Shown here piece after piece: positions 9,312 through 57,993 of a stretch of 64,000 nt of DNA. The notes under the pieces were generated by a model. That model made no database searches. It was not told the DNA's origin and saw only the letters and a list, made by a program, of their open reading frames with translations. Location of the stretch: positions 52,611 through 116,610 of the forward strand of contig JAPPJZ010000062.1 of NCBI GenBank assembly GCA_028874365.1, read 5' to 3'. Each line of letters opens with the position of its first letter. Within the stretch, counting starts at the first letter, position 1. The stretch comes from Chloroflexota bacterium (GTDB lineage: Bacteria; Chloroflexota; Dehalococcoidia; Bin125). Both the position numbers and the translations under genes were made by a program.

Positions 9312-12300
9312 CTACGCCGCCAGTCTGAGCGCACCGTGCAGCTCGATCCGCCGCAGGAACCACAGGAACGCGCCCAGATTGAGCGCAAACAGCGCTGACA
9401 ACGCGCCAAACAGGATGCCAACCCCCGGCCAGTCGATGATGAACTGCAGCGCCGGCACCACATCCCGACCATCCGGCGTGAGCGCGAAGAAGTCCAACAG
9501 CACCGCGCCCGCCTGCGTCCCCACGATCAGTCCCGCTCCCAGTCCAATCGCGATGATGATCAGTTGCTCCAGCGCGATCAATCCCAGAATCTGGCGCATG
9601 CTCATCCCGACGCTCTGACACACGGCAAACTCCACCCGTCGCGCCTGCGCTGTCACTGCGGTCAGCACCACCAGACCGAACGCCGACGCGATCGCCACCG
9701 CCGCCAGCGCGCCGATGAAGACCCCATTCCACGAAGCGACGATCAGCGGGTCGGCCGCCAGTTCCTCCCGGGCGCTCTCGATCGTGGCGATGCCATCGCT
9801 CTCGATCGGCAGCTCGTACCTGGCCAATAGACCGCCCCAGCGCTGCAGCGACGCCGACGCCCACAGTTCGTTGCTCACGGCCAGCGCCACGCCGGCCGCG
9901 GCGCTGCCATACAGCCGATCGATGAATGCCGCGCGATCGATCAACACGAGCGGATCATCGCGCTGCGGGTCGTAGCTCGGGAACGTCTCAAACTGCCCGC
10001 CGACGAGGAACGTCATCGAGGATGGCCCGATCCGCAGTTTGACCGTCTCGCCGATGTTGAGCCGTCCCTGTGCGATGGCCTCCGCCGAAAACAACGCCGG
10101 CAACGGGCCCCGATCCGCGATGTAGCGCACCCCGCGCAGCGACGATGGGATCGCATTCCAGCGATAGCGCGCCTCTGTTTCGGTGACGACGAAGAAGTCG
10201 AGCGGCTCCTCGCCGACCTCCAGGGGCGTCGCCTCCCAGCGTCCTGAGCTGAAATCGGCCAACAGGTAGCTCTCGCCACGCCGGGCGTAGCTCAGATCGC
10301 CAAGCAAGATTTCTCCCCCGGCGCGTGTGAGCGCCAGGTCAAGCGACACCAGTGTCAGTGGCGCGACTGGACGCTCAGCCACCGTGGGGCTGAACCTGCT
10401 TTGCCCCTGGATCAGCCGAGCGCCCTCCAGAGGCAGATAGGCCGCCGGTTCCTCCGTTAAGCGGTTCGAGATCGTGATCCACTCCGGATCTTCTTGAACC
10501 TGAGTGGGACTGAGCGTGTCAATCGCATACCACCAGTAACGTCCGATCGCGTCCAGCACCTTGATGCCGATCACGGTCTCCTGCTCGAGCTGCACAACCG
10601 CAATCCGTAGCTCCAGCAGGCCCCCAAAATCGTCGATCACCGCTCCCTGGACTTCGTTAAGCGGTACCGCAATCTGCTGCAGGTCCGCCGGCGGCAACGC
10701 CCAGTCAGCCCCTTGTTCGGCCAGCTGATCGGCAACCACCTCGGAGTCCAACGCAGCGATCTGCAGATGACCCGAGTCTTCATCCCCTTCGAACGCCCCC
10801 ACGATCCGCTTGATCTGTGCCACCGATGCACCGCTGGCGTCCTCAATCGCCTCATATTGAACAATGTCCGAGACCGGCTCGGTCAGCCGTACCGACGCGC
10901 CCACCGCGTGCAGCGAACGATCGTTGTAAGACGTGTCGAGCGTCGTCCGGAACGAGGCCGCAAACACCGCCAGCGCACCCGCGATCGTCAGCAACAGCAC
11001 CGTCCGCGCGTAGTGCGTCGGTGTGCGACCCAGATACCAGGCGCCCATCAGCAGCGTCAGCGAGCGCCAGGGCGACGCAAGCCGGGCCAGCAGCCGCATC
11101 GTCGGTGGGAACAAGCGCAGCACGATTAGCCCAACCACGAACAGCAACACGGTCGGCGTCGCGACCGCCAGCCAGTCCAGCCGCGTCTCACCGACCAACG
11201 GCGAATCGATCGGATCGCCGGCCCATTGCAGTTCGAAGATCAGCAGAGCGCCCAGCGCTGCTACAGCCGCGTCGATCAGGGCGCGCTGCGTCCATGATGC
11301 GGGCGGCCGACCGCGCTCCCGGCGGGTCGTGACCATCGTCTGGCGAGTCGCCCGGTACGTCGGCACTGCCTGAGCCAGCAGCGCCAGCACCCCTGCGCCC
11401 ACGGCCAGGTACCACGACTCGACCGGCAGCGAGACCGGCAGGAACGGACCCGCGCCGGTAGCGGCCAGCGCCTCATCGAAGGGCGGCACGAACCCCAACA
11501 GACTGACCAGCCCCATGCCGATCAGCGGCCCCAGCAATATCGCCGGAGCGGTCAGAATCGCAGCCTCGACGATGTGCATCACGGCGACATCGCGCTGCCG
11601 GGCGCCTCGCGAACGTAGCCAGGCCGTGTCCTCGGTGCGTTGCTCGGCGAGCATCGCCGATGCCACCACCGCATAGACCAACACCGCGCCCACGAGCTGC
11701 AGCACGATCATCAATAGCGTCGACTGGGCAAACTGGAAGCGTTGGCTGAACCCGACCAGCGTGTCGACCAGTTCCGTCTCCTGCTGGATACCGTCCACGG
11801 ACTGCGAGATTCGCCGAGTCATCTGCTCCAGCGAATCGGCCGCCGCAGACGCTTCCGCCGCCGACGCGCCGTGCAAGTCGGTCCGGAACCGCTGCAGCAA
11901 CGACAGACGCAACGTGGGCGACTGCTCGGCCAGAATGCCGAGAATCCCCTCCCGCGTGGTCCAGAACCGCAGTTCCGTGTCCAGCGCCGCGATCGGCAGG
12001 AACAGCGGATCGAGCGTTGACCAACGCCGCTCGTCGGTCGACGGCTCGATGATCCCGACAATCCGCACGCGAGTCTCATGCTCGGTGCCCAGCCAAAACG
12101 GTTGCGCCAGTCGTTCGTCTCCAACGTCGAGTCCAAAGTCCTGCGCCTGCCTCCGCTCGACCATCACCTCCAACAGATCAGTCGTTGCCTCCGGTCTACG
12201 GCCGGCCACGACTTCTGAGAGGTCCGCCACATCGCTCTGCGCAACGAACGTGGCGTGATCGGCGTCCGGCGGATCGAACGGCTGCTCCTCGGTTCGCAGG

Positions 12301-12659
12301 ATGTATCCACCGGTACGGAGCGCCGTCATTCGGCCAACCGTGAGCGACGAGGCCGCCGCCGAGACTTCGTCATGGATCAGCGACTCAACGTCGTCAACTG
12401 ACGCTGAGTCCGCGGTCACGTTGGTCTGATTGAATCGCAGGTCCAGCGTTGCCGGATCGGCATCCGCGAGCGTCTGCCGCAGTCCCAGATCACGCACCGC
12501 TTCGATGAAGATCGGCGCGCTGCTCGCCAGGCCCACCGCCAGCAGCGCCCCGATCAGCAGCACCGTCGAGAGCCTGGGCGCCGAAGCGATACGCCGCAGC
12601 GCCAGTCTGCCGAGCTCTCGGGCCGTTTCACCGCGTCGAGTCGGAATCTGCTGCGACAT
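9312..12659 (-). CDS. ABC-transporter permease, FtsX-like double-domain (YbbP/MacB-type), 1115 aa
   Basis: Two FtsX modules, each with a large extracytoplasmic loop; C-terminal FtsX signature ...SVGMSMRQILGLIALEQL.... Confidence 0.8.
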   Translation of the reverse strand: MSQQIPTRRGETARELGRLALRRIASAPRLSTVLLIGALLAVGLASSAPIFIEAVRDLGLRQTLADADPATLDLRFNQTNVTADSASVDDVESLIHDEVSAAASSLTVGRMTALRTGGYILRTEEQPFDPPDADHATFVAQSDVADLSEVVAGRRPEATTDLLEVMVERRQAQDFGLDVGDERLAQPFWLGTEHETRVRIVGIIEPSTDERRWSTLDPLFLPIAALDTELRFWTTREGILGILAEQSPTLRLSLLQRFRTDLHGASAAEASAAADSLEQMTRRISQSVDGIQQETELVDTLVGFSQRFQFAQSTLLMIVLQLVGAVLVYAVVASAMLAEQRTEDTAWLRSRGARQRDVAVMHIVEAAILTAPAILLGPLIGMGLVSLLGFVPPFDEALAATGAGPFLPVSLPVESWYLAVGAGVLALLAQAVPTYRATRQTMVTTRRERGRPPASWTQRALIDAAVAALGALLIFELQWAGDPIDSPLVGETRLDWLAVATPTVLLFVVGLIVLRLFPPTMRLLARLASPWRSLTLLMGAWYLGRTPTHYARTVLLLTIAGALAVFAASFRTTLDTSYNDRSLHAVGASVRLTEPVSDIVQYEAIEDASGASVAQIKRIVGAFEGDEDSGHLQIAALDSEVVADQLAEQGADWALPPADLQQIAVPLNEVQGAVIDDFGGLLELRIAVVQLEQETVIGIKVLDAIGRYWWYAIDTLSPTQVQEDPEWITISNRLTEEPAAYLPLEGARLIQGQSRFSPTVAERPVAPLTLVSLDLALTRAGGEILLGDLSYARRGESYLLADFSSGRWEATPLEVGEEPLDFFVVTETEARYRWNAIPSSLRGVRYIADRGPLPALFSAEAIAQGRLNIGETVKLRIGPSSMTFLVGGQFETFPSYDPQRDDPLVLIDRAAFIDRLYGSAAAGVALAVSNELWASASLQRWGGLLARYELPIESDGIATIESAREELAADPLIVASWNGVFIGALAAVAIASAFGLVVLTAVTAQARRVEFAVCQSVGMSMRQILGLIALEQLIIIAIGLGAGLIVGTQAGAVLLDFFALTPDGRDVVPALQFIIDWPGVGILFGALSALFALNLGAFLWFLRRIELHGALRLAA

Positions 12660-15600
12660 CAGTCGGCGCCCTCCCGCAGCAGAGGAGCCGCTTCACGGCC
12701 CGTCGCCCAGCGTGAGATCGCGGTCGTGCCCAGCACCGCACATAACACGATCACCCCGACACCGATACCGGCCAGGACCCAGTCGATCGACAGCACCGTC
12801 GGCGGCGCAGCCGCCACCCCTTCAGCCGTGACGTCGAGGAACGCCAACAGCGCGCCCGCCACTGCCCGCCCCAGGCCGAACCCCAGCGCCACACCGGCCG
12901 CCAACACGAGGCCGACTTCCACCGCGGCTTGCGCGGTCAACCCGGCCCGACCTGAGCCGACGGTCCGCATCAGCGCAAACTCGCGAGCCCGCTCGCCGCC
13001 GGCCGCCGCGAGTGTGAAGATCAGCGCCGCCGATCCCACGATCAAGAGTCCGATGAACCCGACCACGAACAACGCCGCCGCCCCGCCCGAGCGAAACGGA
13101 TCCTCCTCCGCCGCCACGATCTTCGCCTCCGCGTCGAACACTGTGCTGGACAGATACACATCGTCCAGCAGCTCGGCGGCAATCAGGCGTCCCGCATTGC
13201 TTTCTGTCGCAGTCCACACCTCCGTGATCGGCAGCACCGCCTGAACCGCCGCGACCAGCGCCGCCCCCCGCAGCGCTAGGAGATCCACGATCAGGAACCC
13301 GCCCTGCGCCGGATTGAGCGTGGGAAAGTAGTCAACGGCCGACTGAATCCGGACCGGGATGGTCGCATTGCTGACACCGATCGGGACGATGTCGCCGACA
13401 CTGAGGTTGGCGGTCTCCATCGACGTTCGATCCATCGCCGCATTGACCGGCAGGTTCGGCGATTCGCGCACGATGATTCGCTCATCGCTGGCCGCAAGCT
13501 GCGACCAGTGGTAGCGCAGACCTCCGCCCTCGAACGAAATCCGGTCTTCGCCCGCGCCGCCTGAGGCCGGCAGCCACGGTCCAGCCTCGTCAAACGCATC
13601 CACCGCGACGGATTGCTCCCCGACCTGCGCGTTCAAGTCGTCCATGTACAACGTCCCGGTCGGCGCTCGAACCACCCGCGCCTGCGGACGCAGAATGATC
13701 GCCGCGATCCGCAGTGGTTGCTCGAGCCCGCCCAGAGGCGCGCGAAACGTGTTCCAGTCCCCGTCAACCACGGAAGCCGTATTCGTCCGAAACGGGCGCA
13801 TGTGCACCTGTCCACGGGCGTCGAGCACCCGCGCCGCCAGTTCAAGATTGCTGTTCCCCGGATTGCTGCGCACGCGAACCGTCAACGCCTCCGCCCCGTC
13901 CGGCAACTCCTGCCCGGCTCGCCCCGGCTCACGCTCGATCGCCGCCAACAGCTCGTCCGGCGGCGTGCCCAGCAAGTCCTCGTCCAGCGCCACGATCTCG
14001 GACAGCCGACTCGTCTGCAGCCCCAGCAGCACGACGCGGCTGCCTTCCCGATCGCCGCCGATCGCGCCGATCCCGCGATACGCCGCTGCCGCGCTGATTC
14101 CCTGACGGCTCTGCAGCGGCTCCGTCACCCGGCCCACCGTCGAGTTCGACAGGTTGCCGCCGATTGACACCCCGCGCAGGTCCGAACCGACCTCATATTC
14201 AATCCGCGACCGCTCGACGGTCCGAATCGTCGACGCATACGTCGCCGAGATCAGTCCCACGGCCGTGATGAACGCAACCAGGGCCGTCAGCAACATCGGG
14301 CCCGTCGGATTCCGAGCCACGCTGAGCACCCCGAGGTACAACCACGACGGAATCGGTGATCTCGAGAGCAGTGCCGCCGCGAAGCCCCACACCCGCGGGG
14401 CGACCCGCATGATCGTCAGTGCCGCGCCCAGCAGAAGCAGTCCGGGGCTCAGCATCAGCACCGGATTGATCCCGCCCGACTCAAACGCGGCCAGCGCCCC
14501 GCCCGACGCTTCGGTCTCGAACTGAAGAAACAGCACCGTTGCCAGCGCCAGCAATGCCACGTCGAGCCACGCCCGTTGCACCAACGACTGCCGCTGCGGG
14601 CGCCCCTGCGCCACGCGCTCGTTCGTCCGCTGCCGCGCATCGAACCAGGCCGGCGCCGCAAACGCGATCCAGGCGATCACCGCGCCCGCAACTGCCAGCC
14701 CCCACGCCTCCGCCGTCAGCCGCGTATCGAACGGCTCGCCGCCCGAGACCCGAGCCACTGCCTCCAATCGACCGGCATGACTCAACGCAAAAGCCGCCAG
14801 CGGCGCGCCGAGAATCGCCGCCGGTAGAGCCGCGACCCCGCCGAGCATCGCCTGCGCCCCGGCCTGCTGCCATGGTTTCGCTCCGCGAGCCGCGAGCCGT
14901 TCGCGATCGACCCGAGTCCGCTGCGCCATCACGCGTCCGACCAGCGCCACGCCGAACATCGCCACCGCGGCGATCTGCAAACCGGCCAACAGCGACTGCC
15001 CTGCCGAAAACTGCGCCTGGCGTACGAACGTCTGCAGCGTGCCCACCAGGAGCGTGCCCGCCGAGCCACCCTCCAGGCGACTCAGCTGTTGTTGCCACGC
15101 GCCCAGCGACTCGATCACGGCCTCAACCTGGTCGGAGTTAATCGCTCCGGTGTCCAGTTCCGTCCGCATCCGATGCGTCACCGGAGCTCCGAGTCGCTCC
15201 AGCGCGTCGGGCTCGGCGAACATGCCGAAATACGGCACCTCCGCGCCGCCCAGCGTGATATCGAACTGCAACTCGAACCAGACGTCCGTGTAGTGGAACG
15301 CCAGCACCCGCGTGACATCGTCCACGACCGGTTCGATGATCCCGCTGATTTCGAACTGCATCGCCTCGCTGAAACTGACCACGCTGCCGACATCGATGCT
15401 GAGCTGCTCGGCGAGCCGCGCGCCGATCACCACCTCGTCCGCCGAACCGGCCCAATCGCCCCGCACCAGCCGCGCGTTCGTCCGCAGTTGCTCGAACGAC
15501 ATCAGATACGCCAGCAGGGACTCGTTCAGACCGTTGTCGAGGCGCGTAAACCCGGCGAACGTCTCGGGAGTCTCCATGATCCGCCGTGTGTCGCTGGCCA

Positions 15601-15901
15601 GACCTGGGAACCGCTCCAGATGCCGCTCGCGGGCTTCCGCCGCTTCTCGCTCGATGCGATCGAAGTCCTCAGCGCTCGCCGGACGGAAGGCCCGCGAATG
15701 GTCCGCGAACGTGGTCCCCCGCGGCGATTGCTCGATCAACTCGCGAAGCGCGAGGTCGGCCGACGCCGCTCGAAAGACGAGCGGCAACGCCACGAGCGCG
15801 GCGGCGATGATCAGCAGCGACGCAGCCCCGAACATCAATAGCCAACCGCCCCGCAGTTCGCGTAGGGCGGCGAGCCTGAGTAGGCGGAAAAGTCCAAGCA
15901 T
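12659..15901 (-). CDS. ABC-transporter permease, FtsX-like double-domain, 1080 aa
   Basis: Same architecture as neighbour; C-terminal FtsX ...MRTVGSGRAGLTAQAAVE...; start overlaps the stop of the downstream gene (translational coupling). Confidence 0.8.
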   Translation of the reverse strand: MLGLFRLLRLAALRELRGGWLLMFGAASLLIIAAALVALPLVFRAASADLALRELIEQSPRGTTFADHSRAFRPASAEDFDRIEREAAEARERHLERFPGLASDTRRIMETPETFAGFTRLDNGLNESLLAYLMSFEQLRTNARLVRGDWAGSADEVVIGARLAEQLSIDVGSVVSFSEAMQFEISGIIEPVVDDVTRVLAFHYTDVWFELQFDITLGGAEVPYFGMFAEPDALERLGAPVTHRMRTELDTGAINSDQVEAVIESLGAWQQQLSRLEGGSAGTLLVGTLQTFVRQAQFSAGQSLLAGLQIAAVAMFGVALVGRVMAQRTRVDRERLAARGAKPWQQAGAQAMLGGVAALPAAILGAPLAAFALSHAGRLEAVARVSGGEPFDTRLTAEAWGLAVAGAVIAWIAFAAPAWFDARQRTNERVAQGRPQRQSLVQRAWLDVALLALATVLFLQFETEASGGALAAFESGGINPVLMLSPGLLLLGAALTIMRVAPRVWGFAAALLSRSPIPSWLYLGVLSVARNPTGPMLLTALVAFITAVGLISATYASTIRTVERSRIEYEVGSDLRGVSIGGNLSNSTVGRVTEPLQSRQGISAAAAYRGIGAIGGDREGSRVVLLGLQTSRLSEIVALDEDLLGTPPDELLAAIEREPGRAGQELPDGAEALTVRVRSNPGNSNLELAARVLDARGQVHMRPFRTNTASVVDGDWNTFRAPLGGLEQPLRIAAIILRPQARVVRAPTGTLYMDDLNAQVGEQSVAVDAFDEAGPWLPASGGAGEDRISFEGGGLRYHWSQLAASDERIIVRESPNLPVNAAMDRTSMETANLSVGDIVPIGVSNATIPVRIQSAVDYFPTLNPAQGGFLIVDLLALRGAALVAAVQAVLPITEVWTATESNAGRLIAAELLDDVYLSSTVFDAEAKIVAAEEDPFRSGGAAALFVVGFIGLLIVGSAALIFTLAAAGGERAREFALMRTVGSGRAGLTAQAAVEVGLVLAAGVALGFGLGRAVAGALLAFLDVTAEGVAAAPPTVLSIDWVLAGIGVGVIVLCAVLGTTAISRWATGREAAPLLREGAD

Positions 15902-24283: not shown

Positions 24284-24379
24284 GGAGAACTGAAAACCCG
24301 CAAGCCGCCTGAGCGCAGCGCCCGCCGGTCGAGAGCACAGCGGGCCGCGGTCAGGCGGCGTGTCTGTGGTCGGGAAGCG

Positions 24380-24715
24380 CTAGAACGTACTCAGCGCGCC
24401 GGGGCGGTCGTCGTGGATCGGAATAATCTCCGCGAAACCGGAGAACTTGAACACTTCCTGGATGTGATCCTGCACCGCACAAAGCGCAAGTTGGCCGGCC
24501 GACTGACTGGTTCGCTTGGCGGCCATCAAGAGGACCCTGAGCCCGGCCGAGGAGATGTAGTTGATCCCCTCGAAATTCATCAAGATCTGATTGTCCCCCG
24601 CGTCGATTCGGCCGAGTAGCGCCTCTTCGAACGCCTTCGCATTGGTCCCGTCGATTCGTCCGAGCGGGTTCAGCACCAGCACGCTGTCGTCGTATTCCGG
24701 GTAAAGGTCAACCAT
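24380..24715 (-). CDS. STAS-domain anti-sigma-factor antagonist (SpoIIAA/RsbV-like)
   Basis: 111 aa; phospho-acceptor region INYISSAGLRVLL. Confidence 0.8.
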   Translation of the reverse strand: MVDLYPEYDDSVLVLNPLGRIDGTNAKAFEEALLGRIDAGDNQILMNFEGINYISSAGLRVLLMAAKRTSQSAGQLALCAVQDHIQEVFKFSGFAEIIPIHDDRPGALSTF

Positions 24716-24754
24716 CAGTCGTCTCCTCTATCGGCCTGAAGCGGCGTGACTAGC

Positions 24755-26803
24755 TTATTCCGAATCATCCTCAGACGTCGCCCGCGTTTGTCTCAACGTC
24801 GTGACATTGCGGTCATCAATCCGCTCGTAGTTTACCGCATCGAATGTCGATGCAATCAGCTGCAGGCCGAGTCCACCGATCGGCCGCTCGAGCAGGTCCA
24901 ACTCCGTGTCCTGCCCCGTCGCCTCCAGCGGATTGAATGCGGGGCCGTTGTCCTCGTAGCGAACCACGATCGTCTCGCCTTCCCGGCGCATCGCGATCGA
25001 GATGTCCGCTTCGTTCTCTCGACCCGGGAACCCATGCTCGATCGTGTTCGTGAACAGCTCGTCCAGCGCCAGGTTGATCCGATACAGCTCCATCGGATCG
25101 AACCCCTCTGTTTCGGCGAACCGCTCAACGAAGGCGGCTACCCGCGGGAGCGACGTCTCCAGAGTCGGCTGTACCACCATGCGCCGCCATCCCGACGCCA
25201 GGTGCGTCTCACCGCGCCCTGGGATGAACGGCTCTTCAAGCGCCCCGCCGACGAACTGAACCGCCATACACGTAATGTCGTCGAACTGCTTGGCGTCGCC
25301 CGAGAACGTGCGCAGGTCGGTCAGCACCGACTCCATCAGCTCCTGCGGGCCCTCACCGTTGAGCCCGGCGAGCTTCTCTTCCAGCCGCTCCCGACCGAAC
25401 TGCTGCCCGGCAACGTCCTCCGCCTCCGTGATTCCATCGGTGTAGAGGAACATCGACGCCCCTTCATCGAGCGGAATCGTCGTCTCCGTGTAGTTGAGCT
25501 CCGGCAGCACGCCGAGCGCGATCCCGCCGGTCATCGGGATCATCTCCGGCCCCTCATTCGGGCGCATCAGGTACGGCGGATCGTGGCCCGCATTCACATA
25601 GGTCAGCGTGCCCAGCTCCAGATCAATCACACCGAAGAACGCCGTGATGAAGAGTTCCTTCGGATTCATCGAGCAGAGCTGGTCGTTCGTCTCGGCAACG
25701 GCCATGCTCGGGTCGGCATGCTGATTCGCCGCGCTCCGCAACAGCGCGCGTCCAACCGCCATCATCAACGCCGAGGCCACGCCCTTGCCCGACACGTCCG
25801 CGATCGCGAACGCCAGGTGCCCGTGATCGGTGATGAACGCGTCGTAGAAGTCGCCGCCCACATCCAGCGCAGGCGTCATGAACGCGGCTACGCCGGCGCG
25901 CGGATCTTCCGGCAGGTCCGACGGCACCAGCGCCGCCTGCACCGAGTGCGCCATCTCCAGGTCGTTGCGAATCTCGCGCTGCGCATCCTCAAGCGCCTGG
26001 TTCTTCTCCGACAACTCAACCGTGCGCTCCTCGACGATCGCATTCAGTCTGATCTCACGTGCGCCGACCTCGCGAGCCATGTCCAGGAACACGCCCGCCA
26101 GCTCCCCGTACTCGTCGCGCGTCAACGATGTGTTCCGCAGCGATGCAGCGACCGACGGTTCCGGTTGCTGCCCGTCTTCGACCGCCCGCGCGGCGCGAAC
26201 CATCAATCCAATCGGGCGCGCCAGCCGCTTGGCCAGGAACCAACTGGCCAGCACCAGCAGCAGCAGCAGGGCGATCACCCCGATCAGGTACTCGAGCCGG
26301 TACAGATCGAAGTGATTGCCGATGTGATTGCTCGTGAACTCGACCCTGACCGCACCGAGAGGACTACCGTCCTCGGCGCGGATCGCCGCCGTCCCGGCGT
26401 AGCGACCGTCGGTCAGCGCCTCGACGACCGCTCCGTCGCCGCCCTCCATCGCCTGGCGCGCACTTGCCACCTCAGTCCGACTGATCGGTCGCGAGCCGTC
26501 CGAGGACGCCGCAAGCCGCGCCTGCACATTGAACACCCAGATGTTGTCCAGGTCGACGGCTTCCCCCTCGACGTCAGCCGCGGAAGCCGCGTTCAAACGA
26601 ATCAGTGCGTTGACTTCATCTTCGCTCAGCGACGCCAGGTCGGCTTCCAGCAGCGAACGCGCAATCGCCTCGGCAAAGACCTCTGCCGACTTGCGTCCCG
26701 TGTCACCCTCTGAATCCAGCGCAAGCAGCAGCAGCACGACTGCCGAAGCGATCACCCCGGCGAGCGTCAGGACGGAGATCATGCCGACGATGCGCCCAGC
26801 CAT
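24755..26803 (-). CDS. membrane sensor PP2C (SpoIIE-type) phosphatase fused to C-terminal GHKL/RsbW-like serine kinase domain
   Basis: TM1, ~150-aa outside loop, TM2+HAMP, PP2C (DVSGKGVASALMM...YVNAGH...LYTDGITEA), then HATPase_c (LALDELFTNTIEHG). Confidence 0.8.
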   Translation of the reverse strand: MAGRIVGMISVLTLAGVIASAVVLLLLALDSEGDTGRKSAEVFAEAIARSLLEADLASLSEDEVNALIRLNAASAADVEGEAVDLDNIWVFNVQARLAASSDGSRPISRTEVASARQAMEGGDGAVVEALTDGRYAGTAAIRAEDGSPLGAVRVEFTSNHIGNHFDLYRLEYLIGVIALLLLLVLASWFLAKRLARPIGLMVRAARAVEDGQQPEPSVAASLRNTSLTRDEYGELAGVFLDMAREVGAREIRLNAIVEERTVELSEKNQALEDAQREIRNDLEMAHSVQAALVPSDLPEDPRAGVAAFMTPALDVGGDFYDAFITDHGHLAFAIADVSGKGVASALMMAVGRALLRSAANQHADPSMAVAETNDQLCSMNPKELFITAFFGVIDLELGTLTYVNAGHDPPYLMRPNEGPEMIPMTGGIALGVLPELNYTETTIPLDEGASMFLYTDGITEAEDVAGQQFGRERLEEKLAGLNGEGPQELMESVLTDLRTFSGDAKQFDDITCMAVQFVGGALEEPFIPGRGETHLASGWRRMVVQPTLETSLPRVAAFVERFAETEGFDPMELYRINLALDELFTNTIEHGFPGRENEADISIAMRREGETIVVRYEDNGPAFNPLEATGQDTELDLLERPIGGLGLQLIASTFDAVNYERIDDRNVTTLRQTRATSEDDSE

Positions 26804-28154: not shown

Positions 28155-28664
28155 CTATTGGCTGGTTGCCGGACGAGTACCGAACGTCGTCGTCGAGGTG
28201 ACCACCGGCGGCGCGTCGGATCGGGAAGCCGGAGCCGAACCCGATCCGCCCCCGCTCGCGAGCAGCGACCAACGGTTGCGTCCGTTGTTCTCGATCTCGC
28301 CCATTTCCTTCATCCGCTGCAGCGTCGACTGCAACGTCGGCATCGGCTTGGCGGACTGCGGAGCAGCATCCTGCTTCTCGAGGAACGCGAGGATCTCCGT
28401 CGCGTGTACCGGCCCGCTCTGCTGACCGAGGAACTCACGCACCTTGCCGGTAATCAGGCCTCGCGGTCGGCGCGTGCGCTTGGCGCCGCCCGCGGTCCGT
28501 CGAGCGGCTCGACGCCGCGCCGGCCGAGGCGCGCTGGGAGTACCGCCCGACGATTCGTTACTCAGTAACTCCTGAATCAGGCGCCGCTTGTTCTCCAGGC
28601 GGTCAATCTCTGTCTGGATTGCCGCAAGTTCGGACTGCAGTTGCCCAGTAAACGTGTCGGCCAT
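28155..28664 (-). CDS. hypothetical protein, N-terminal coiled coil, basic linker, C-terminal winged-helix-like region
   Basis: Start MADTFTG at 28664 with GGAGGG SD; AT-rich promoter-like region upstream (TTGACG...TATACT). Confidence 0.5.
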   Translation of the reverse strand: MADTFTGQLQSELAAIQTEIDRLENKRRLIQELLSNESSGGTPSAPRPARRRAARRTAGGAKRTRRPRGLITGKVREFLGQQSGPVHATEILAFLEKQDAAPQSAKPMPTLQSTLQRMKEMGEIENNGRNRWSLLASGGGSGSAPASRSDAPPVVTSTTTFGTRPATSQ

Positions 28665-28782
28665 GTCTGCTGTTCCTCTCCCTCCGACACAATGCCAAAC
28701 CACCGTATGTGATTTGACTTCGTGACGGCATCATGTGTATTCCAACTGTTGTCTCAGTATATGCACCTGTCAGGCGCATCCG

Positions 28783-29742: not shown

Positions 29743-30020
29743 ATGTCGTCAAAGCAGTCCCGGCCGACCGGCGTGACGTACACCCGGTACGACGACTCAC
29801 CTATATGGGTCAAATCAACGAGTCCGTGTTCCGCCAGCTTGGCCAGCACGCCCGGGTGATAGCCCTGGTGCTGCAGGGCCGGTCGAAACACCAGCCCCTC
29901 CTCCCCGACCGCGTCATCCACCACGATCGCCGTCGGATCCGGCGGATCTTGCAACGCCATCAGATCCGCCAGCAGGGCGCAGTGGTACTCGTTCAGTCGG
30001 ACATGACGAAACTGGATCAC
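29727..30020 (-). CDS. hypothetical 97-aa protein, overlaps mutY start and HEPN stop
   Basis: High GC3 (coding-like); 16-nt overlap with mutY, 4-nt overlap with HEPN gene. Confidence 0.4.
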   Translation of the reverse strand: MIQFRHVRLNEYHCALLADLMALQDPPDPTAIVVDDAVGEEGLVFRPALQHQGYHPGVLAKLAEHGLVDLTHIGESSYRVYVTPVGRDCFDDMCGLT

Positions 30021-30427
30021 GATTCGAGCGAGCTGAGTTTGGTCGAGACGAACTCAACAACGTCCTGGGCGATCTCAACCGCGCGTGCCGAGTCGACCTG
30101 ATCGTAGACTTCGTGAGGCACGCCGCCCGGCAGCCCGGTCGGATAGCGCGTCGGATGGTGATACTTGTCCAGCAGCATCGCCACCGTTTTGATCACGTCG
30201 AACGACGTATCGAACTGCATCGCGTCCTCGCACAGGTCGGAGAGCGCGTGTCCCCAGACATGATCGGCGCCGCGAGCGAACAGGTAGCCGGCCACCGCCT
30301 TCTCGCCTGCCTGCTGACACAGAAAGCACGCCAGCGCGTGGAAGCCGCCCGACGCTGCGTGCTCGGCCGCCTCCAGATCGTGTCGTGCCTGCGCCAGCCA
30401 ACGCTCCGACTCCGCTCGCCCGCTCAC
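30017..30427 (-). CDS. HEPN-domain protein (toxin of HEPN/MNT pair)
   Basis: ARHDLEAAE...ACFLCQQAGEKAVAGYL typical HEPN helices. Confidence 0.8.
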   Translation of the reverse strand: MSGRAESERWLAQARHDLEAAEHAASGGFHALACFLCQQAGEKAVAGYLFARGADHVWGHALSDLCEDAMQFDTSFDVIKTVAMLLDKYHHPTRYPTGLPGGVPHEVYDQVDSARAVEIAQDVVEFVSTKLSSLES

Positions 30428-30762
30428 ACGATCACCGCATCACTGAGCCGCGTCGCTTCGACGATCACGCGATCCGTTTCGCAGAGTTCCGCGAACTCGT
30501 CCGGCGTGTAGACGATGAACGATGTGCCGACCTGGGGTCTCAAATGCGTCTGGAAGAAATCCGACCGGTGATGAAACGGCCGCTCGGTCTCGTGCACGAT
30601 CAGCAATTCGAGCTCGGACTCCGGTCCAACCGTGTTGCGTGCCAGATCCCCCGCTAGCCAGAACCGTTCAGCGCCAAGCTGGCGCATGGCCCCGGCGATA
30701 CGCAGGAACTCGGCCTCAAGTTGCTGACGGCGATGCGTGGCGAAACCGAACACCATCGGCAT
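30424..30762 (-). CDS. minimal nucleotidyltransferase (MNT, antitoxin partner)
   Basis: GDLARNTVGPESELELLIV NTase core; 4-nt overlap with HEPN gene. Confidence 0.8.
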   Translation of the reverse strand: MPMVFGFATHRRQQLEAEFLRIAGAMRQLGAERFWLAGDLARNTVGPESELELLIVHETERPFHHRSDFFQTHLRPQVGTSFIVYTPDEFAELCETDRVIVEATRLSDAVIV

Positions 30763-43922: not shown

Positions 43923-45215
43923 CTACAACAACGCTTCGTAGACGCCCTTCTCGAAGTCGGTCTCCAGGTACGCGACGGGGTTGAACTGGTACATGAACAC
44001 GTGGGTGAAGAACAGTCCGGCGAGGTTCTCGGCCGGGTCAACGAAGAACCACGTGCCCGCGGCGCCGCCCCATCCGTATGTGCCGACACTGCCGGGATAC
44101 GCCGTGCCGGCGATCCGGTCGCGCACCGCGTATCCGAACCCGAATCCAAATCCGGGGCCGGCCAAATCGATCTCCGTTCCGCAGATCGCGCCGAGGTGGT
44201 TCGCGGTCATCAGCTCAATCGTCTTCCGACCGAGTACACGCACCCCGTCCAGTTCTCCGCCGTTGAGCAGCATCGCGGCGAAGCGCGTGTACGCCGCCGG
44301 CGTCATCAGCACGCCACCGTACAGTCCGTTGCCGGATATCTGCTGGCCCAGCGACTCGCGCACCTTGTGCGAGGTCTCGGGCCGCTCGACCGGATTGAGC
44401 GCGCCCTCCTCGGACCAGTGGTGATTGGTGACCAGTCGAGCGGCATCGCCAGGCGGACAGTAGAAGCCACAGCCCTCGACCCCCAGCGGTCCAAAGATCC
44501 GCTCCTGGAAGAGCTCGTCGAGGTTCTGCCCGGTCGCTCGTTCGAGCAGCAGGGTCAGGACATCGAAATCCGCCGCATACTCCCACGCCGCGCCGGGCTG
44601 CCGCGCGTTGGGGAGCTGCGCCATCTGCAGCACGCGTGTCTCCGCCGACACCGACGTATCGACAACGCCCGGGTTGGTGATCCCGAATTCGGTACCGCTC
44701 CAGGCCGGTTCGAGCAGCGGAAACATCCCCGACGGAATGTTGCCGAACGATGGCAAGCCCGATGTCATCGTCAGCAGATCGCGAATCGTGATCTGCCTGA
44801 CCATCGGCACCGTCTGGCCCATCAGCAAGCCCTGTCCACGGACCTTGTTGGGTGGATCGAACGGGGCCAAGACCTGGCGGTTCTCGAACTCCGGCAGCCA
44901 CTTCGTGATGGGCTCGTCAACGTAGAAGACGCCCTCCTCCTGCAGTTGCATCGTCAGCGCGGCCGTGACCGGCTTGGTCTGCGAGTACATACGGAACAGC
45001 GCGTCGATCGGCAGCGGATTCTTGCGTTCCGAATCCAGGTACCCGTGCGACGAGACGTGCGCGAGATGACCATGCCGAAGCAGAACCGTCACCACGCCGG
45101 GGACCTCGTCGTTCTCAACAGCTTGCGCCATGCGAGCGTCAACACGTGCCAGCCGCTCGGCGTCGATACCGAGCGAGGCAGGATCGGCGGCAGGAAGATT
45201 GGCAAAGTCGGACAT
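43923..45215 (-). CDS. beta-lactamase-family (class-C-like) serine hydrolase
   Basis: SQTK (SxxK) motif; start MSDFANLP at 45215 (track ORF extends to 45458). Confidence 0.75.
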   Translation of the reverse strand: MSDFANLPAADPASLGIDAERLARVDARMAQAVENDEVPGVVTVLLRHGHLAHVSSHGYLDSERKNPLPIDALFRMYSQTKPVTAALTMQLQEEGVFYVDEPITKWLPEFENRQVLAPFDPPNKVRGQGLLMGQTVPMVRQITIRDLLTMTSGLPSFGNIPSGMFPLLEPAWSGTEFGITNPGVVDTSVSAETRVLQMAQLPNARQPGAAWEYAADFDVLTLLLERATGQNLDELFQERIFGPLGVEGCGFYCPPGDAARLVTNHHWSEEGALNPVERPETSHKVRESLGQQISGNGLYGGVLMTPAAYTRFAAMLLNGGELDGVRVLGRKTIELMTANHLGAICGTEIDLAGPGFGFGFGYAVRDRIAGTAYPGSVGTYGWGGAAGTWFFVDPAENLAGLFFTHVFMYQFNPVAYLETDFEKGVYEALL

Positions 45216-45297
45216 GATCGGCTCCTTGCTGAAAGACTGGCCTGTCGAGGATAGGCGCTGGGATCGCGTAGTCTCGGCATGATCAAGGGAGGTCGGC

Positions 45298-46509
45298 ATG
45301 GCGTACGAGTATGACCGCAACATCCGCGACAGGGTGGCGGTGATCGGTGTCGGCGAGACGGAGTACACGAAGCACGGACGCATCGGGCGTCCGGAGTTCC
45401 GCCTCGCCCTCGAGGCCATCCTCGCCGCCTGCGCCGACGCAGGACTCGAACCACGCATGTTGGATGGCTTCTCCTCCTACTCCGCCGATCGCAACGATCC
45501 CAACCGGCTCTCGACGGCGCTCGATCTGCCCCACTACGCCTTCGCCTCGATGGTCTACGGCGGAGGTGGTGGAGGCGTCTGCGCGGCGATCGGCAACGCA
45601 GCCGCCGGCATCGTCGCCGGCTATGCCAACTTCGTCGTGGTCTACAGAGCCCTGGCGCAGGGCGAGTTCGGTCGCTTCGGCCAGTCACGCCGGGGCGGCC
45701 GGCTGCGAGGTCAGTACGCCTTCAATGTGCCCCAGGGCCTGATGTCGCCGGCACAGTTCCTGGCAATGAAGATGCAACGCCATATGTACGAGTACGGAAC
45801 TACGTCCGAACATCTGGGACACATCGCTGTCGCCGCGAACAAGCATGCGCAGAACAATCCCCGCGCGGTGATGAACGGACGGCCGATCACGCTGGAAGAT
45901 CATCAGAACTCCCGCATGATCGCCGACCCATATCGGCTCTACGACTGCTGCCTCGAGACCGATGGCGCAGCGGCAATGATCCTCACCACCGCGGAGATCG
46001 CCCGCGACTTCACCGACAAGCCGGTCTACCTGGCGGCTTCTGTGCAGGGCTCCGGCCATCGACAGGGCAACGTGGTGGATGGCTTCTGGCACGACGACTT
46101 CATGAGTTCCAACTACACGACGATGGTCGACCGGCTGTATTCGGCCGCAGGCATGGGCCCGGACGAGATCGACTGCGGTCAATTCTACGAGAACTTCACC
46201 GGCCAGGTGCTGACCTCGTTTGAGGACCACAAGTTCTGCGAGGTCGGCGAGGGCGGCCCCTTCTGCGAAGGCGGACGACTTGAGACGAAGCAGGTCGCCG
46301 AGCCCGGCGCACCGTACGCGGGCGAGTTCCCGATCAACACCTCCGGCGGCAATCTGTCCGAGGCATACACCCACGGATTCAATCTCGCCGTCGAAGCAAT
46401 CCGTCAGCTGCGAGGCGACTCGTCCAATCCGGTCGAAGGCGCGAGAACCTGCATTGTCGCGGCCGGTCCGGCGTCCGCGCCAATCTCGTCGGCGATCTTC
46501 CGCAACTGA
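45298..46509 (+). CDS. thiolase-like protein, SCP-x / lipid-transfer (Ltp) type
   Basis: Thiolase fold without the classic active-site Cys motif; GGGGGG loop; usual partner DUF35 lies nearby. Confidence 0.75.
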   Translation: MAYEYDRNIRDRVAVIGVGETEYTKHGRIGRPEFRLALEAILAACADAGLEPRMLDGFSSYSADRNDPNRLSTALDLPHYAFASMVYGGGGGGVCAAIGNAAAGIVAGYANFVVVYRALAQGEFGRFGQSRRGGRLRGQYAFNVPQGLMSPAQFLAMKMQRHMYEYGTTSEHLGHIAVAANKHAQNNPRAVMNGRPITLEDHQNSRMIADPYRLYDCCLETDGAAAMILTTAEIARDFTDKPVYLAASVQGSGHRQGNVVDGFWHDDFMSSNYTTMVDRLYSAAGMGPDEIDCGQFYENFTGQVLTSFEDHKFCEVGEGGPFCEGGRLETKQVAEPGAPYAGEFPINTSGGNLSEAYTHGFNLAVEAIRQLRGDSSNPVEGARTCIVAAGPASAPISSAIFRN

Positions 46510-46516
46510 GCCCGCG

Positions 46517-47551
46517 CTAGGAGAGCGCCCGCTTGATGCAGTGACTGGTCGGTAGCGAATGCTCTCCAGCCTCTCGCTGGGCGATCGCCTGCCCGAGCAT
46601 CTGCCCGATCTGATTCTGCAACTTGCGGGAACGCGTCCAGCCGATGAAGCTCTCCTGCATGATCGTCACCACATAGCGGGGTTGCGATCCGAGCCAGGGC
46701 GGAGCCAACCAGATGGCGGCGCTGTTCATCCGCACGAGGGCGCGCACCCTGCTCGCCTGTGACCGGAGCGGCGAGTCGCCGACTTCCTCTGCTTCTGCCT
46801 CGTCTTCGGCCCGCTGGAGGTCGCGTATGAGCAAGGCCGCGTCCTCGTAGTCGCGCGGGTTGATCTTTGCGATGGGATCGTCGTCCTCGGATTCGGGGAT
46901 CGTGAAGTTGCCGGTCTTGATCAGCGACTCCCAGCCGGGAAGCATGGGTTCGGGGATCGTTGCGCCCCAGCGGTGGTTGTCGACTACCTCGCGGAGCAGG
47001 TCGAAGCCATCGGCCCGCGCGTCGTGCGGGACGGACTCGGATCGCGCCAGCGCGGCGAAGAGCCGGGCCAGATGGATCGGCTCGGCCCGGCTGGCGCCCC
47101 AGCGGCTGCGATGGGTGAGTTCGATCAGTTCCGGAACGCCCCAGCGTTCGTAGTACTCGGTCAGTCCGGCCAGGCCGCCGATCATCGACAGCAAGGTGGT
47201 CACGTCGGGATTCTGCGACCAGGCGACCATGTAGAACAGGGCGTCACGTTGCAGCTTGGTCAGCTCCCTCCCCTCGTCGTACGCATCGCTGAGGATGGCC
47301 CAGGCGATGGGCGGCTTGATCACGCTATGCAGGGCGTATGGTCCCGAGTGGCCGCCGGTCCAGATCGTCTCGGTTTCCAGGTCATAGACCGCAGCGCCGA
47401 TCACGGCGTCAACGCTCAGCACTTGACGTTCGAATTCGTTCGAGAGGGCGCACAGCGGGGCGTCGGCCGAGGCCGGTCGGGGGACCGCGATCAAGATCAG
47501 GGCAGGGAGCATCAAGGCGGGCAACAGGGCGAGGGCGGGCAGTCGGCGCAT
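46517..47551 (-). CDS. secreted class-A-beta-lactamase-fold serine hydrolase
   Basis: Signal peptide; all three class-A motifs present: SVIK (SxxK), SQN (SDN-loop variant), KTG. Confidence 0.6.
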   Translation of the reverse strand: MRRLPALALLPALMLPALILIAVPRPASADAPLCALSNEFERQVLSVDAVIGAAVYDLETETIWTGGHSGPYALHSVIKPPIAWAILSDAYDEGRELTKLQRDALFYMVAWSQNPDVTTLLSMIGGLAGLTEYYERWGVPELIELTHRSRWGASRAEPIHLARLFAALARSESVPHDARADGFDLLREVVDNHRWGATIPEPMLPGWESLIKTGNFTIPESEDDDPIAKINPRDYEDAALLIRDLQRAEDEAEAEEVGDSPLRSQASRVRALVRMNSAAIWLAPPWLGSQPRYVVTIMQESFIGWTRSRKLQNQIGQMLGQAIAQREAGEHSLPTSHCIKRALS

Positions 47552-47594
47552 GCCGCGTCAGCGTACTAGGCAGACAACGCGTTACTCTCGCGCT

Positions 47595-48056
47595 ATGACG
47601 AGTTCGAGCCAGCCTGCGGAGTTCCTGGATGCCCCATACTTCCCGGACGGGATGAGCGTTCCGGACCCGGACGATGCGATCAACGGCGGTTACTTCGCCG
47701 CGGCCGCCGACAGGCGGCTCGTGGTTCAGCGCTGCGCCGACTGTGGCACTCGACAGTATCCGCCGGAGTTGAACTGCCATGCGTGCTACGGCTTCAACAT
47801 GGAGTGGGAAGAGTCGGTCGGGACCGGGACGGTCTGGTCGTGGGTCGAGGTCGTGCACCCTGCCCATCCGGCGTTGCGCGAGTTCGGGCCATACATGGTG
47901 GCGTTGGTCGAATTGGACGATATGCCCGAGATCAAGCTGATGGGCGCGGTGGTTGATGCTCCGCTGGGCGGGACGATGAAGATCGGCGCGCGGGTGCGTG
48001 TGGTCTTCGAGCGGACGGCGGACGACCTCGCACAACCACGCTGGCACATGGCATGA
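47595..48056 (+). CDS. DUF35 zinc-ribbon / OB-fold protein (thiolase partner)
   Basis: CADCGTRQYPPELNCHAC rubredoxin-like zinc ribbon followed by OB fold; start MTSSSQP. Confidence 0.75.
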   Translation: MTSSSQPAEFLDAPYFPDGMSVPDPDDAINGGYFAAAADRRLVVQRCADCGTRQYPPELNCHACYGFNMEWEESVGTGTVWSWVEVVHPAHPALREFGPYMVALVELDDMPEIKLMGAVVDAPLGGTMKIGARVRVVFERTADDLAQPRWHMA

Positions 48057-54511: not shown

Positions 54512-54570
54512 TATCGTTGCGACAGTTGAAGAGACTGTTGAATTTGTCCCGACTGAAGTTGGAGTGACGT

Positions 54571-57500: not shown

Positions 57501-57993
57501 GGTGCTGAGCCTGATGGACTGCCCGGGGATGATGGTCGGGCCGGACGTAGAGGCGACGGCGCTCGTGCGGCACTGCGCGAGAATGTTCAACACCGGGGCC
57601 AACCTTAGCGTGCCGTTGTTCGGCGTGGTCGTGCGCAAGGCCTACGGACTCGGGGTGCAGGCGATGTGCGGCGCGAGCGCACTGGTCGGATTCTTCACCG
57701 TGGCCTGGCCGACGGCGGAGTTCGCCGGGATGAACCTTGAAGGCTCGGTCAAGTTGGGCTACCGCAAGGAGCTGATCGCGATCGAGGACCCCGACGAGCG
57801 GATTGAGACCTACGAGAACATGGTCAACCGGGCCTACGAGAACGCCAAGGCGGTCAACGCAGCGGCGGGCGGCGGCCTGGACGATGTTATCGATCCGGCG
57901 GAGACGAGAACGTGGGTTGTCAACGGTCTCAAGCGTCTACCACCGACGCCTGAGCGACGGGGGAAGAAGCGGCCGTATATCGATACGTGGTAG
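54571..57993 (+). CDS. single-chain biotin-dependent acyl-CoA carboxylase (biotin carboxylase + BCCP + carboxyltransferase)
   Basis: N-terminal ATP-grasp BC; biotinyl-Lys motif EAMKMEH; C-terminal crotonase-fold CT domain; 1140 aa. Confidence 0.85.
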   Translation: MAVSVSVSPVSKLLITNRAEIAIRVARAASDLGIETVAVYSTDDAKSLHVHSADEAVELDGLGVPAYLNIDGLIEAARSTGCDAVHPGYGFLAESAEFARACRDAGITFVGPTPHLLDLFGDKVRARQAAREAGVAVIEGSDEAVTLAEALEFFESLGDDAAIMVKAVAGGGGRGSRAVTQIEDLEAAWERCVSEAQMSFGSGALYVEQLIPRARHIEVQVIGDLHGGVGHLWERECSVQRRFQKIVEIAPAPHLASSTREEIVEAAVRIARDVGYSSLGTFEFLLDASEGSNDRFYFLEANARLQVEHTVTEQVTGVDLVQSQLRAARGATIAELGLDDASWLRPRGFAIQTRVNMETLTADGSVRPASGTLKAYEAPSGPGVRTDGFGYVGYQTSTAFDSLLAKVIAHSPTPKLEDALTRSLRALSEFRIEGVASNIPFLTNVLEHADLAEGRVHTRWVDEQMAELAASNGAQRVRYLSTEAPAADTGFAGARVDSRDPLALFEHDQRVKQEQSIQVVEEDAPDLTGPEGSIGLPAPIQGTIVSIMVEEGQEVRRGQDLVAMEAMKMEHVIQADRDGIVKGIACSVGDVIREGFPLVFILEAEVSVEALGGGELIDPDFIRPDLQENYDRHAYTLDENRPVAVGKRRGRGYRMPRENIEQLVDPGSFQEYWPLIVARQHQRNTDEQLRENTPADGLLAGTATINGDLFDDERDARAIVVHYDYTVLAGTQGGRNHYKQDRMFEMARRFNFPIVFYTEGGGGRPGDDRTGPGVAFDTYTFTQFSKLSGLVPLVGVTNGRCFAGNTALLACCDVIIATEGSTVAMGGPAMIEGGGLGIYTPEEVGPMSFQVPNGVVDILCRDEEEATEVAKQYLSYFQGPTKEWTAPDQRRLRHIVPENRLRLYDMKEIIETIADEGSVLEIREKFGIGIITALIRVEGYPIGVIANNPHHLAGAIDSDGSDKGARFLQLCDAFDIPVLSLMDCPGMMVGPDVEATALVRHCARMFNTGANLSVPLFGVVVRKAYGLGVQAMCGASALVGFFTVAWPTAEFAGMNLEGSVKLGYRKELIAIEDPDERIETYENMVNRAYENAKAVNAAAGGGLDDVIDPAETRTWVVNGLKRLPPTPERRGKKRPYIDTW

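Follow-up and report, generated by a model that had tools for sequence, protein, structure and literature searches.

A minus-strand gene pair in a Dehalococcoidia genome encodes a probable transmembrane partner-switching module with phosphatase and kinase domains in one protein

Can a single membrane protein carry both the kinase and the phosphatase that act on a STAS-domain regulator, and so place that regulator under the control of a signal from outside the cell? This question is raised by two minus-strand genes at positions 24380-26803 of a 64,000-nucleotide (nt) stretch of a Chloroflexota bacterium of the class Dehalococcoidia (contig JAPPJZ010000062.1). We refer to the entire stretch as the window and use its numbering for genes and coordinates. 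A first-pass annotation, made from the DNA letters, described the upstream gene product as a 682-amino-acid (aa) protein combining a transmembrane (TM) sensor loop, HAMP, a PP2C phosphatase and a C-terminal RsbW-type kinase, and its neighbor as a STAS anti-anti-sigma protein. Pfam, hydropathy and an AlphaFold2 model agree with the first description. The second is borne out by matches to Pfam STAS (E 8e-18) and to NCBIfam TIGR00377, "anti-sigma factor antagonist" (77.4 against a cutoff of 53.45). The two genes are separated by a spacer of 39 nt.

24755..26803, minus strand: sensor phosphatase-kinase gene, 682 aa, stop included, ATG start (from the list of open reading frames [ORFs])
24380..24715, minus strand: single-domain STAS gene, 111 aa, anti-sigma-factor-antagonist family, ATG start (Pfam/TIGR00377)

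The 682-aa product is 100% identical to a database protein (P0001) that NCBI names [quoted passage not shown] As detailed below, we conclude that the pair probably constitutes a one-component transmembrane partner-switch module, in which the STAS protein would be the common substrate of the fused kinase and phosphatase.

Loss of catalytic residues from either enzymatic domain had been named beforehand as grounds for rejecting such a switch. We examined conservation in a set of 31 sequences, consisting of the window protein and 30 full-length orthologues from metagenome-assembled genomes of Dehalococcoidia/Chloroflexota (72-96% identity), and found all metal ligands and all N and G boxes to be invariant. 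The three features that carry the proposed chemistry are as follows.

25244..25918, minus strand: PP2C/SpoIIE-family serine phosphatase domain, residues ~296-520 (Pfam SpoIIE 327-517, E 1.4e-51)
24785..25186, minus strand: RsbW/SpoIIAB-type GHKL serine kinase domain, residues ~540-673 (Pfam HATPase_c_2 548-671, E 1.2e-21)
24548..24550, minus strand: Ser56 codon, predicted phospho-acceptor of the STAS protein (from alignment with Bacillus subtilis SpoIIAA, 1auz)

In the phosphatase domain, D318, D336, D456 and D508/D509 align with SpoIIE D610, D628, D746 and D795, which are the manganese ligands of that enzyme (PMC3517971). The motifs VGGD318FY, AD336VSGKG, NAGH, YTD456G and FD508D509IT are each invariant among the 31 sequences, and the metal ligands are also invariant in a 40-sequence alignment that reaches down to 30% identity. 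The kinase domain is equally well preserved, with an invariant N box (D581-E582-L-x-T-N586-T-x-E-H590-G-F) and invariant G1 (E-D618-N-G620-x-x-F623) and G2 (I-G643-G644-L-G646-L) boxes; these align with the boxes of SpoIIAB (1til/1th8) and RsbW (6m36), and the G1 box has the RsbW form D-x-G-x-x-F. The kinase domain also matched SenB (PDB 9qih), a match that we dropped when the literature search returned nothing on SenB. In the STAS protein, YISSAGL aligns with FMDSSGL of SpoIIAA (1auz), S56 is invariant in the 31 sequences, and 89 of the 111 columns are invariant overall. Counting along the SpoIIAA sequence, we take S56 to lie opposite S58, the phosphorylated residue of SpoIIAA. Neither enzymatic domain has any sign of decay at the level of its residues.

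Conservation of sequence alone cannot prove turnover, and PP2C-derived pseudo-enzymes do exist; Escherichia coli RssB, for example, is an adaptor without phosphatase activity (PMC12143880). One of the two domains could by analogy be non-catalytic, either a pseudo-phosphatase of the RssB kind or a GHKL domain that merely binds the STAS protein, in which case there would be no true bifunctional switch. Set against this are the PP2C metal ligands and the ATP boxes, invariant in all 31 orthologues (the PP2C set to ~30% identity), together with the likewise invariant STAS acceptor serine. Because purifying selection on all three residue sets is hard to explain otherwise, we favor catalysis and consider a non-catalytic domain quite improbable. 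We infer that both domains are active enzymes and that the STAS protein is what they act on. Architecture, intact residues and gene linkage support the bifunctional switch proposed in the first-pass annotation, with bifunctionality itself carried over from homologues.

A second ground for rejection was that the STAS gene might not be conserved next to the sensor gene in relatives. It lies directly downstream, on the same strand and with 91-100% identity, in 30/30 orthologous Dehalococcoidia loci. The eight other neighbors that we tested are all syntenic as well (genes for a thioesterase, NIPSNAP, a 182-aa protein, HhH-GPD, an aminotransferase, GNAT, MOSC and an FAD-dependent enzyme). Among these nine syntenic genes, STAS is the most conserved, as would be expected of a hub with several binding partners. 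More telling are five fused relatives with only 30-39% identity to the window protein: P0095 (Xanthobacteraceae), P0075, P0077, P0079 and P0147. Their neighborhoods are unlike that of the window, with P0077, P0079 and P0147 having a trio of upstream genes in common, and a STAS gene is immediately downstream (overlapping or within 40 nt) in 5/5 of them.

Other relatives carry the same domains on separate genes. In loci L032-L038, L041, L042 and L045, from Caldilineaceae and Anaerolineales (Chloroflexota) and from Arenicellales, Thalassobaculaceae and Pseudomonadales (Alpha-/Gammaproteobacteria), PP2C and kinase are encoded by adjacent, separate genes. Nine of the loci have both PP2C and kinase ORFs, and six of these nine (L032, L034, L037, L038, L041 and L042) have a STAS gene within ~1.5 kb; L038 has a second STAS copy ~5 kb away. 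We considered cross-phylum transfer between L032 and L037 and ruled it out, as both are Arenicellales. Because distant fused and split relatives both keep the linkage, phosphatase, kinase and STAS travel together in many lineages, and the split-gene relatives offer independent support, from gene order, for regarding the three as one functional unit.

The split relatives also suggest how the window protein arose. In L033, the last residue of the PP2C product lies opposite window residue 519 and the first of the kinase opposite residue 535, with a GTGA overlap between the two genes. Window residues 520-534, between these two points, form a low-confidence, poorly conserved tether.

25187..25243, minus strand: flexible inter-domain tether, former gene boundary, residues ~521-539 (predicted local distance difference test [pLDDT] ~40)

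Because the split-gene boundary maps onto this disordered linker, we interpret the window protein as a fusion within a classical rsbU-rsbW-rsbV-type cassette, and the simplest reading of the gene order is that the stop codon between two translationally coupled, overlapping genes was lost. In a neighbor-joining tree of PP2C plus kinase, split and fused forms intermingle, which hints at repeated fusion or fission; the deep branches of this tree are short and carry no bootstraps. The existence of relatives with both functions on separate overlapping genes could also mean that two genes were read as one in this contig through a frameshift, an assembly error or a lost stop. We reject this artefact as effectively refuted, since the full-length protein recurs as an uninterrupted ORF of 672-692 aa in 30 other independently assembled genomes, several of them titled "chromosome," and in ~70 protein clusters at 56-100% identity from different samples. 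Independent fusions in other lineages point the same way, and the chance that the fusion is spurious is negligible.

We then asked what the membrane half of the protein contributes. Its features are as follows.

26717..26779, minus strand: TM helix 1, residues ~9-29 (Kyte-Doolittle peak 2.80; inside helix 2-50 of the AlphaFold2 model)
26300..26716, minus strand: extracytoplasmic single-Cache/PDC sensor, residues ~30-168
26234..26299, minus strand: TM helix 2, residues ~169-190 (Kyte-Doolittle peak 2.84)
26054..26233, minus strand: HAMP, residues ~191-250 (Pfam HAMP 189-245)
25919..26053, minus strand: helical, coiled-coil-type linker from HAMP to PP2C, residues ~251-295 (continuous helix 231-292 in the AlphaFold2 model)

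Hydropathy revealed two hydrophobic segments only, the second followed by KRLAR (four K/R in residues 190-205). Two TM segments and this cluster of basic residues indicate a topology with the N terminus in, a loop of ~140 residues out and HAMP in. The sensor region between the two TM helices conforms to the PDC fold, which combines a long helix at the N terminus with a sheet of five strands and its flanking helices. The window protein matched none of the Pfam Cache models at E <= 0.01, and sCache_3_2 was matched by 4/40 aligned relatives (best E 1.7e-6). Within the sensor, R96, R116 and R153 are invariant and R109 is near-invariant; such arginines would presumably suit an anionic ligand, as in CitA-type sensors. 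HAMP was matched at E <= 0.01 by 39/40 aligned relatives and is followed by a linker helix that aligns with those of SiaA (6k4e) and Pseudomonas aeruginosa RssB (3eq2). A regulatory role has been described for such helical linkers, and it has been proposed as a general principle that coiled-coil linkers pass signals from HAMP, PAS and REC to PP2C dimers (PMC12143880).

The AlphaFold2 model, built from the 40-sequence alignment, has a mean pLDDT of 78.7 and a predicted template modeling score (pTM) of 0.47, from which we take the individual domains to be confident and their relative placement not. It contains the helix that leads from HAMP AS2 to the phosphatase (231-292), the PP2C sandwich, a disordered tether (522-537) and the GHKL domain. 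Conservation differs between these parts. Mean identity to the window sequence is 0.62 for the sensor loop, 0.93 for HAMP, 0.91 for the helical linker, 0.84 for PP2C, 0.80 for the kinase and 0.96 for STAS, and HAMP is the most conserved segment of the receptor, with 41/55 columns invariant in the 31 sequences. A variable sensor loop in front of a conserved HAMP and linker would look like a signaling wire behind a diversifying ligand site. In two fused relatives, genes for solute-binding proteins lie next to the module: in one (L052:3847-5004), a periplasmic solute-binding gene (Peripla_BP_6) shares 4 bp with the start of the sensor gene, and in the other (L048:7837-9447) an SBP_bac_5 gene follows the STAS gene. 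This suggests that some fused members sense their ligand through a binding protein.

Taken together, these features lead us to propose the following mechanism. The receptor would be a two-pass and very probably dimeric protein, in which a Cache/PDC domain is followed by HAMP, a helical linker of ~45 residues, PP2C, a tether of ~15-20 residues and the kinase. A ligand would bind the extracytoplasmic Cache domain, and its occupancy would alter the activity of the PP2C dimer by way of HAMP and the helical linker, a route that has been proposed for RsbU, RssB and HAMP-PP2C proteins. The tethered kinase domain would phosphorylate STAS Ser56 with ATP, and the PP2C domain would take the phosphate off again. 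A shift in the balance between kinase and phosphatase would then set the fraction of unphosphorylated STAS protein, the presumed signaling species, whose binding partner may be the kinase domain, a target encoded at some other place in the genome, or both. At the sequence level, every hallmark of partner switching is present (phosphatase, kinase, STAS acceptor and linkage), with the exception of an identified switched partner.

Several observations weigh against this mechanism. HAMP in the window protein scores 24.2 bits, marginally short of the Pfam gathering score of 25. Because the entire +-6 kb neighborhood is syntenic within the clade, we discarded STAS adjacency in the 30 orthologues as independent proof of coupling. 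The kinase domain could be mainly a binding (anti-sigma) module. As far as the sequence goes, a ligand may act on either enzyme or on both, and may activate or inhibit. Finally, a search of the window ORFs for a sigma factor gene or any other candidate target found neither. It covered the called genes at ~1-56.5 kb (by Pfam calls, from annotation of three overlapping 20-kb stretches of the contig), the ORFs of >=220 aa beyond, and the ORFs of >=60 aa searched with hidden Markov models for PP2C, kinase and STAS. Nor did any PP2C, RsbW-like or STAS gene beyond those of the pair turn up in this search.

How does the proposed module relate to partner-switching systems that have already been characterized? 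The classical cassettes, RsbU-RsbW-RsbV and SpoIIE-SpoIIAB-SpoIIAA, use the same three protein families with the same catalytic and acceptor residues. Their phosphatase and kinase are separate proteins, whereas those of the window are fused, and the Bacillus sigB and spoIIA operons include a sigma factor gene, whereas the window ORFs examined contain no linked sigma gene.

The closest parallels in domain order are HsbR/HsbA of P. aeruginosa and CrsR/CrsA of Shewanella oneidensis, which we compared by their described architecture rather than by their sequences (PMC6482189). HsbR (REC-PP2C-kinase) controls the phosphorylation of HsbA on Ser56, its homologue CrsR does likewise for CrsA, and in both proteins the kinase domain doubles as an anti-sigma factor for RpoS (PMC6482189). 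As in the window, PP2C precedes an RsbW-type kinase on one polypeptide, the partner is a single-domain STAS protein, and no sigma gene is described as part of either pair (PMC6482189). The input differs. HsbR and CrsR are cytoplasmic and have an N-terminal REC domain fed by a phosphorelay, whereas the window protein has no REC match; because its input is a TM-Cache-TM-HAMP module, the window receptor is expected to read an extracytoplasmic signal directly.

The best structural match to the window protein is the RsbU-RsbW fragment of Mycobacterium tuberculosis Rv1364c (3KE6), which extends over PP2C and kinase alike (Foldseek E 8e-20, 392 aligned columns). The full protein (PAS-PP2C-kinase-STAS) both adds phosphate to the serine of its own STAS domain and removes it (PMC10950880, PMC9138534). 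Its fused PP2C and RsbW-like kinase act on STAS, as proposed for those of the window protein, and it is also a sequence match, with an identity of ~20%. It differs in being cytoplasmic, with a PAS input and with STAS in the same chain; the window protein has no PAS, a membrane Cache-HAMP input and a STAS partner encoded by a separate gene.

SiaA of P. aeruginosa resembles the membrane half, as it has two TM segments, HAMP and PP2C, and it provides both the top NCBIfam match (NF038263) and the top PDB sequence match (6k4e). In vitro, SiaC is cycled by SiaA together with the kinase SiaB, and SiaC in turn controls the diguanylate cyclase SiaD (PMC7647112). One small antagonist-like protein is the substrate of an opposing kinase and phosphatase, as proposed for the window pair, and the Sia system has an output other than a sigma factor (PMC7647112). 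With 113.5 bits, the window protein falls below the NF038263 equivalog cutoff of 700, and it aligns over HAMP and PP2C only. In addition, SiaB is a separate protein, and SiaC, which is phosphorylated on Thr68, is only structurally similar to antagonists, whereas the window partner is a true STAS protein; no diguanylate cyclase (GGDEF) gene was found near the window module. SypE of Vibrio fischeri likewise holds a serine kinase and a PP2C in a single protein acting on a STAS Ser56, but in the order kinase-REC-PP2C, with a receiver input and in the cytoplasm. SypE sets the Ser56 phosphorylation of SypA, which acts downstream and not as a classical antagonist (PMC10120452).

Judged by its domains, the window protein is outside three classes: that of HsbR/CrsR, as it lacks REC; that of Rv1364c, as it lacks PAS and its STAS partner is unfused; and that of SiaA, by its score and its fused kinase. 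The literature that we searched, with many subscription journals outside it, yielded no characterized protein that combines a TM Cache-HAMP input with a fused PP2C-kinase, and we treat this as a weak negative. The novelty implied by the first-pass annotation, that of kinase and phosphatase on one STAS-directed polypeptide, was overstated, as HsbR, CrsR, SypE and Rv1364c precede it and the architecture is abundant in databases. The parts and the logic are known; their combination is uncharacterized in the searched literature yet common in databases.

If the STAS protein is the switched component, what does it act on? The first-pass annotation stated that no sigma factor gene is adjacent and concluded that the output may not be a sigma factor. 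That argument is invalid, given that RpoS, the sigma factor on which HsbR and CrsR act, is not reported as part of the hsbR-hsbA and crsR-crsA pairs (PMC6482189), which makes non-adjacency uninformative. The output may still be a non-sigma one, by analogy with SiaC and SiaD, HsbA and HsbD/FlgM, and SypA. We weighed two readings of the output, which we regard as about equally likely and not mutually exclusive.

The first elaborates the output step of the proposed mechanism, rather than excluding it, along the lines of CrsR. The sensor would be a membrane-tethered anti-sigma factor whose kinase domain holds a sigma factor, encoded elsewhere, at the membrane until STAS protein, dephosphorylated by the ligand-regulated PP2C domain, binds the kinase and frees the sigma factor. 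The C-terminal domain is indeed a member of the RsbW/SpoIIAB anti-sigma family, and the STAS protein scores above the cutoff of the antagonist model TIGR00377. In CrsR and HsbR, where PP2C and kinase follow in the same order, it is the kinase domain that binds RpoS, and rpoS is not reported as part of the pair (PMC6482189). Rv1364c is also reported to interact with SigF (PMC10950880). On the other hand, no sigma gene was found among the window ORFs examined or adjoining the five other fused lineages inspected, and sigma-binding residues are not recognizable from sequence. We hold this reading to be plausible but short of probable.

Alternatively, the STAS protein could be an effector with a non-sigma target, as are SypA, HsbA and SiaC, and the sensor would just set its phosphorylation. 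There is precedent: the diguanylate cyclase SiaD is activated by SiaC (PMC7647112), the phosphorylation of HsbA decides whether it binds FlgM or the cyclase HsbD (PMC6482189), and SypA acts downstream of SypE (PMC10120452). The standing of STAS as the most conserved gene of its neighborhood is consistent with extra binding surfaces, and a trio of genes (LuxC-like, LuxE-like and one encoding 524-535 aa) that precedes the module in three distant fused relatives may supply a partner there. However, the window clade lacks this LuxC/LuxE/GNAT cluster, the window itself offers no recognizable candidate target, and the lack of an adjoining sigma gene is no evidence for a non-sigma target. This reading, too, is one that we entertain tentatively.

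The trio itself was observed at L050:1-4981, L055:1-3992 and L056:1-3982, all from distant fused-type relatives, where the same three genes precede the sensor-STAS pair. The first encodes a protein of >830 aa with LuxC and AMP-binding matches. The second, in matching position, encodes 424-443 aa, with AMP-binding matches in two of the three loci and none on record in L056. The product of the third (524-535 aa) has weak or faint acetyltransferase matches in L055 and L056 and a weak HATPase_c_2 match in L055 only, with none on record in L050. In the lineages with the trio, STAS could have its switched partner in a second RsbW-like domain, joined there to an acetyltransferase.

To estimate how common the architecture is, we used an exhaustive HMMER search of 1.84 billion representatives of 50%-identity clusters and considered the best 150. 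The window clade collapses into one such cluster (P0070), after which the score falls from 816 to 343 bits. Among the best 150 representatives, 123 align in one stretch over PP2C and kinase, ~61 of those from TM2/HAMP onward. Ten sampled representatives all have SpoIIE and HATPase_c_2 (10/10), HAMP is present in 9/10, and a recognizable dCache_1 or TorS-like sensor in 6/10. In some sources, proteins of this kind already go by [quoted passage not shown] From these matches, the PP2C-kinase chassis appears widespread and its extracytoplasmic sensors interchangeable.

It is conceivable that the window protein belongs to a large class of one-component transmembrane partner-switch receptors, in which an external ligand sets the phosphorylation of a STAS protein encoded directly downstream and the output is not a sigma factor. 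Such a class would be made up of at least ~60 divergent 50%-identity clusters with a [Cache or four-helix-bundle sensor]-HAMP-PP2C-RsbW kinase arrangement, and a dedicated STAS gene is directly downstream in every fused lineage inspected (the window clade and 5/5 others). Taken as a whole, with its non-sigma output, this broader proposal strikes us as somewhat doubtful. If it is true, the candidate partner in some relatives would be the RsbW-like domain fused to an acetyltransferase near LuxC/LuxE-like genes.

Two minor features concern expression of the gene pair.

24723..24728, minus strand: GAGGAG ribosome-binding site (Shine-Dalgarno) of the STAS gene, 8 nt before the ATG (read from the sequence)
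24292..24359, minus strand: G+C-rich hairpin then GGGUUUUC, possible terminator after STAS, between convergent genes (tentative)

The RNA fold of the hairpin 3' of STAS has an energy of -46.5 kcal/mol and a z of -1.88 against shuffles, modestly better than chance, and a simple terminator scan missed it; because the folding beats shuffles only modestly, we regard the terminator as tentative. A promoter scan of 24-29 kb returned no sigma-70-like sites. An ORF of 655 aa, rich in Arg, Pro and His, lies antisense to nearly the entire sensor gene (24746-26713, plus strand), and we read it as a shadow ORF, as is usual opposite a gene with 65% G+C, rather than as a gene of its own.

Other parts of the window contain features of separate interest. 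The 182-aa protein of the syntenic neighborhood (28155-28703, minus strand) has no Pfam match; a coiled-coil-like segment at its N terminus leads into an Arg-rich middle, which is followed by a C-terminal part. Its gene, co-directional and three genes upstream of the sensor gene, is kept at the same position in 29/30 orthologous loci (62-92%). At 30017-30762 (minus strand), a HEPN protein (136 aa, PF05168) overlaps by 4 bp the preceding 112-aa ORF, which has no Pfam call. This arrangement resembles a toxin-antitoxin pair of the HEPN/nucleotidyltransferase type and is also found in a 59%-identity relative (L057). Two tandem giants of 1115 and 1080 aa, FtsX-domain and permease-like, share one base at their junction (9312-15901, minus strand). 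At 52073-57993 (plus strand), a gene for 812 aa, in which CoA-transferase family III sequence occurs in two stretches, precedes one for a single 1140-aa polypeptide that joins biotin carboxylase, biotinyl carrier and carboxyltransferase, a fully fused acyl-CoA carboxylase. The GC skew changes sign sharply at ~44000-48000, from ~-0.1 to -0.25 before ~46 kb to +0.13 to +0.19 after ~48 kb, and the cumulative-skew minimum at ~46 kb could mark a replication origin or terminus or a mere change in gene orientation. The record of one split-gene relative (L032) is titled Candidatus Poriferihabitaceae, a family name referring to Porifera. The clade may be host-associated, and the isolate labels IRC, RHO and SB0664 possibly denote marine-invertebrate samples.

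At the window locus, the value of these results is mainly annotational: a "SpoIIE family protein phosphatase" of uncultured Dehalococcoidia becomes a Cache-HAMP sensor phosphatase/kinase with a predicted STAS substrate. A tractable member of the family, whose architecture is abundant in metagenomes, would give a clean system for studying how HAMP and a coiled coil bias a kinase/phosphatase pair and what a STAS protein controls where there is no linked sigma factor. If the proposed mechanism is true, the module would represent a partner-switching pathway cut to its minimum, in which one membrane protein reads the ligand and holds both opposing enzymes, and the phosphorylation of the STAS protein would report on the outside world without a two-component relay or a stressosome in between.

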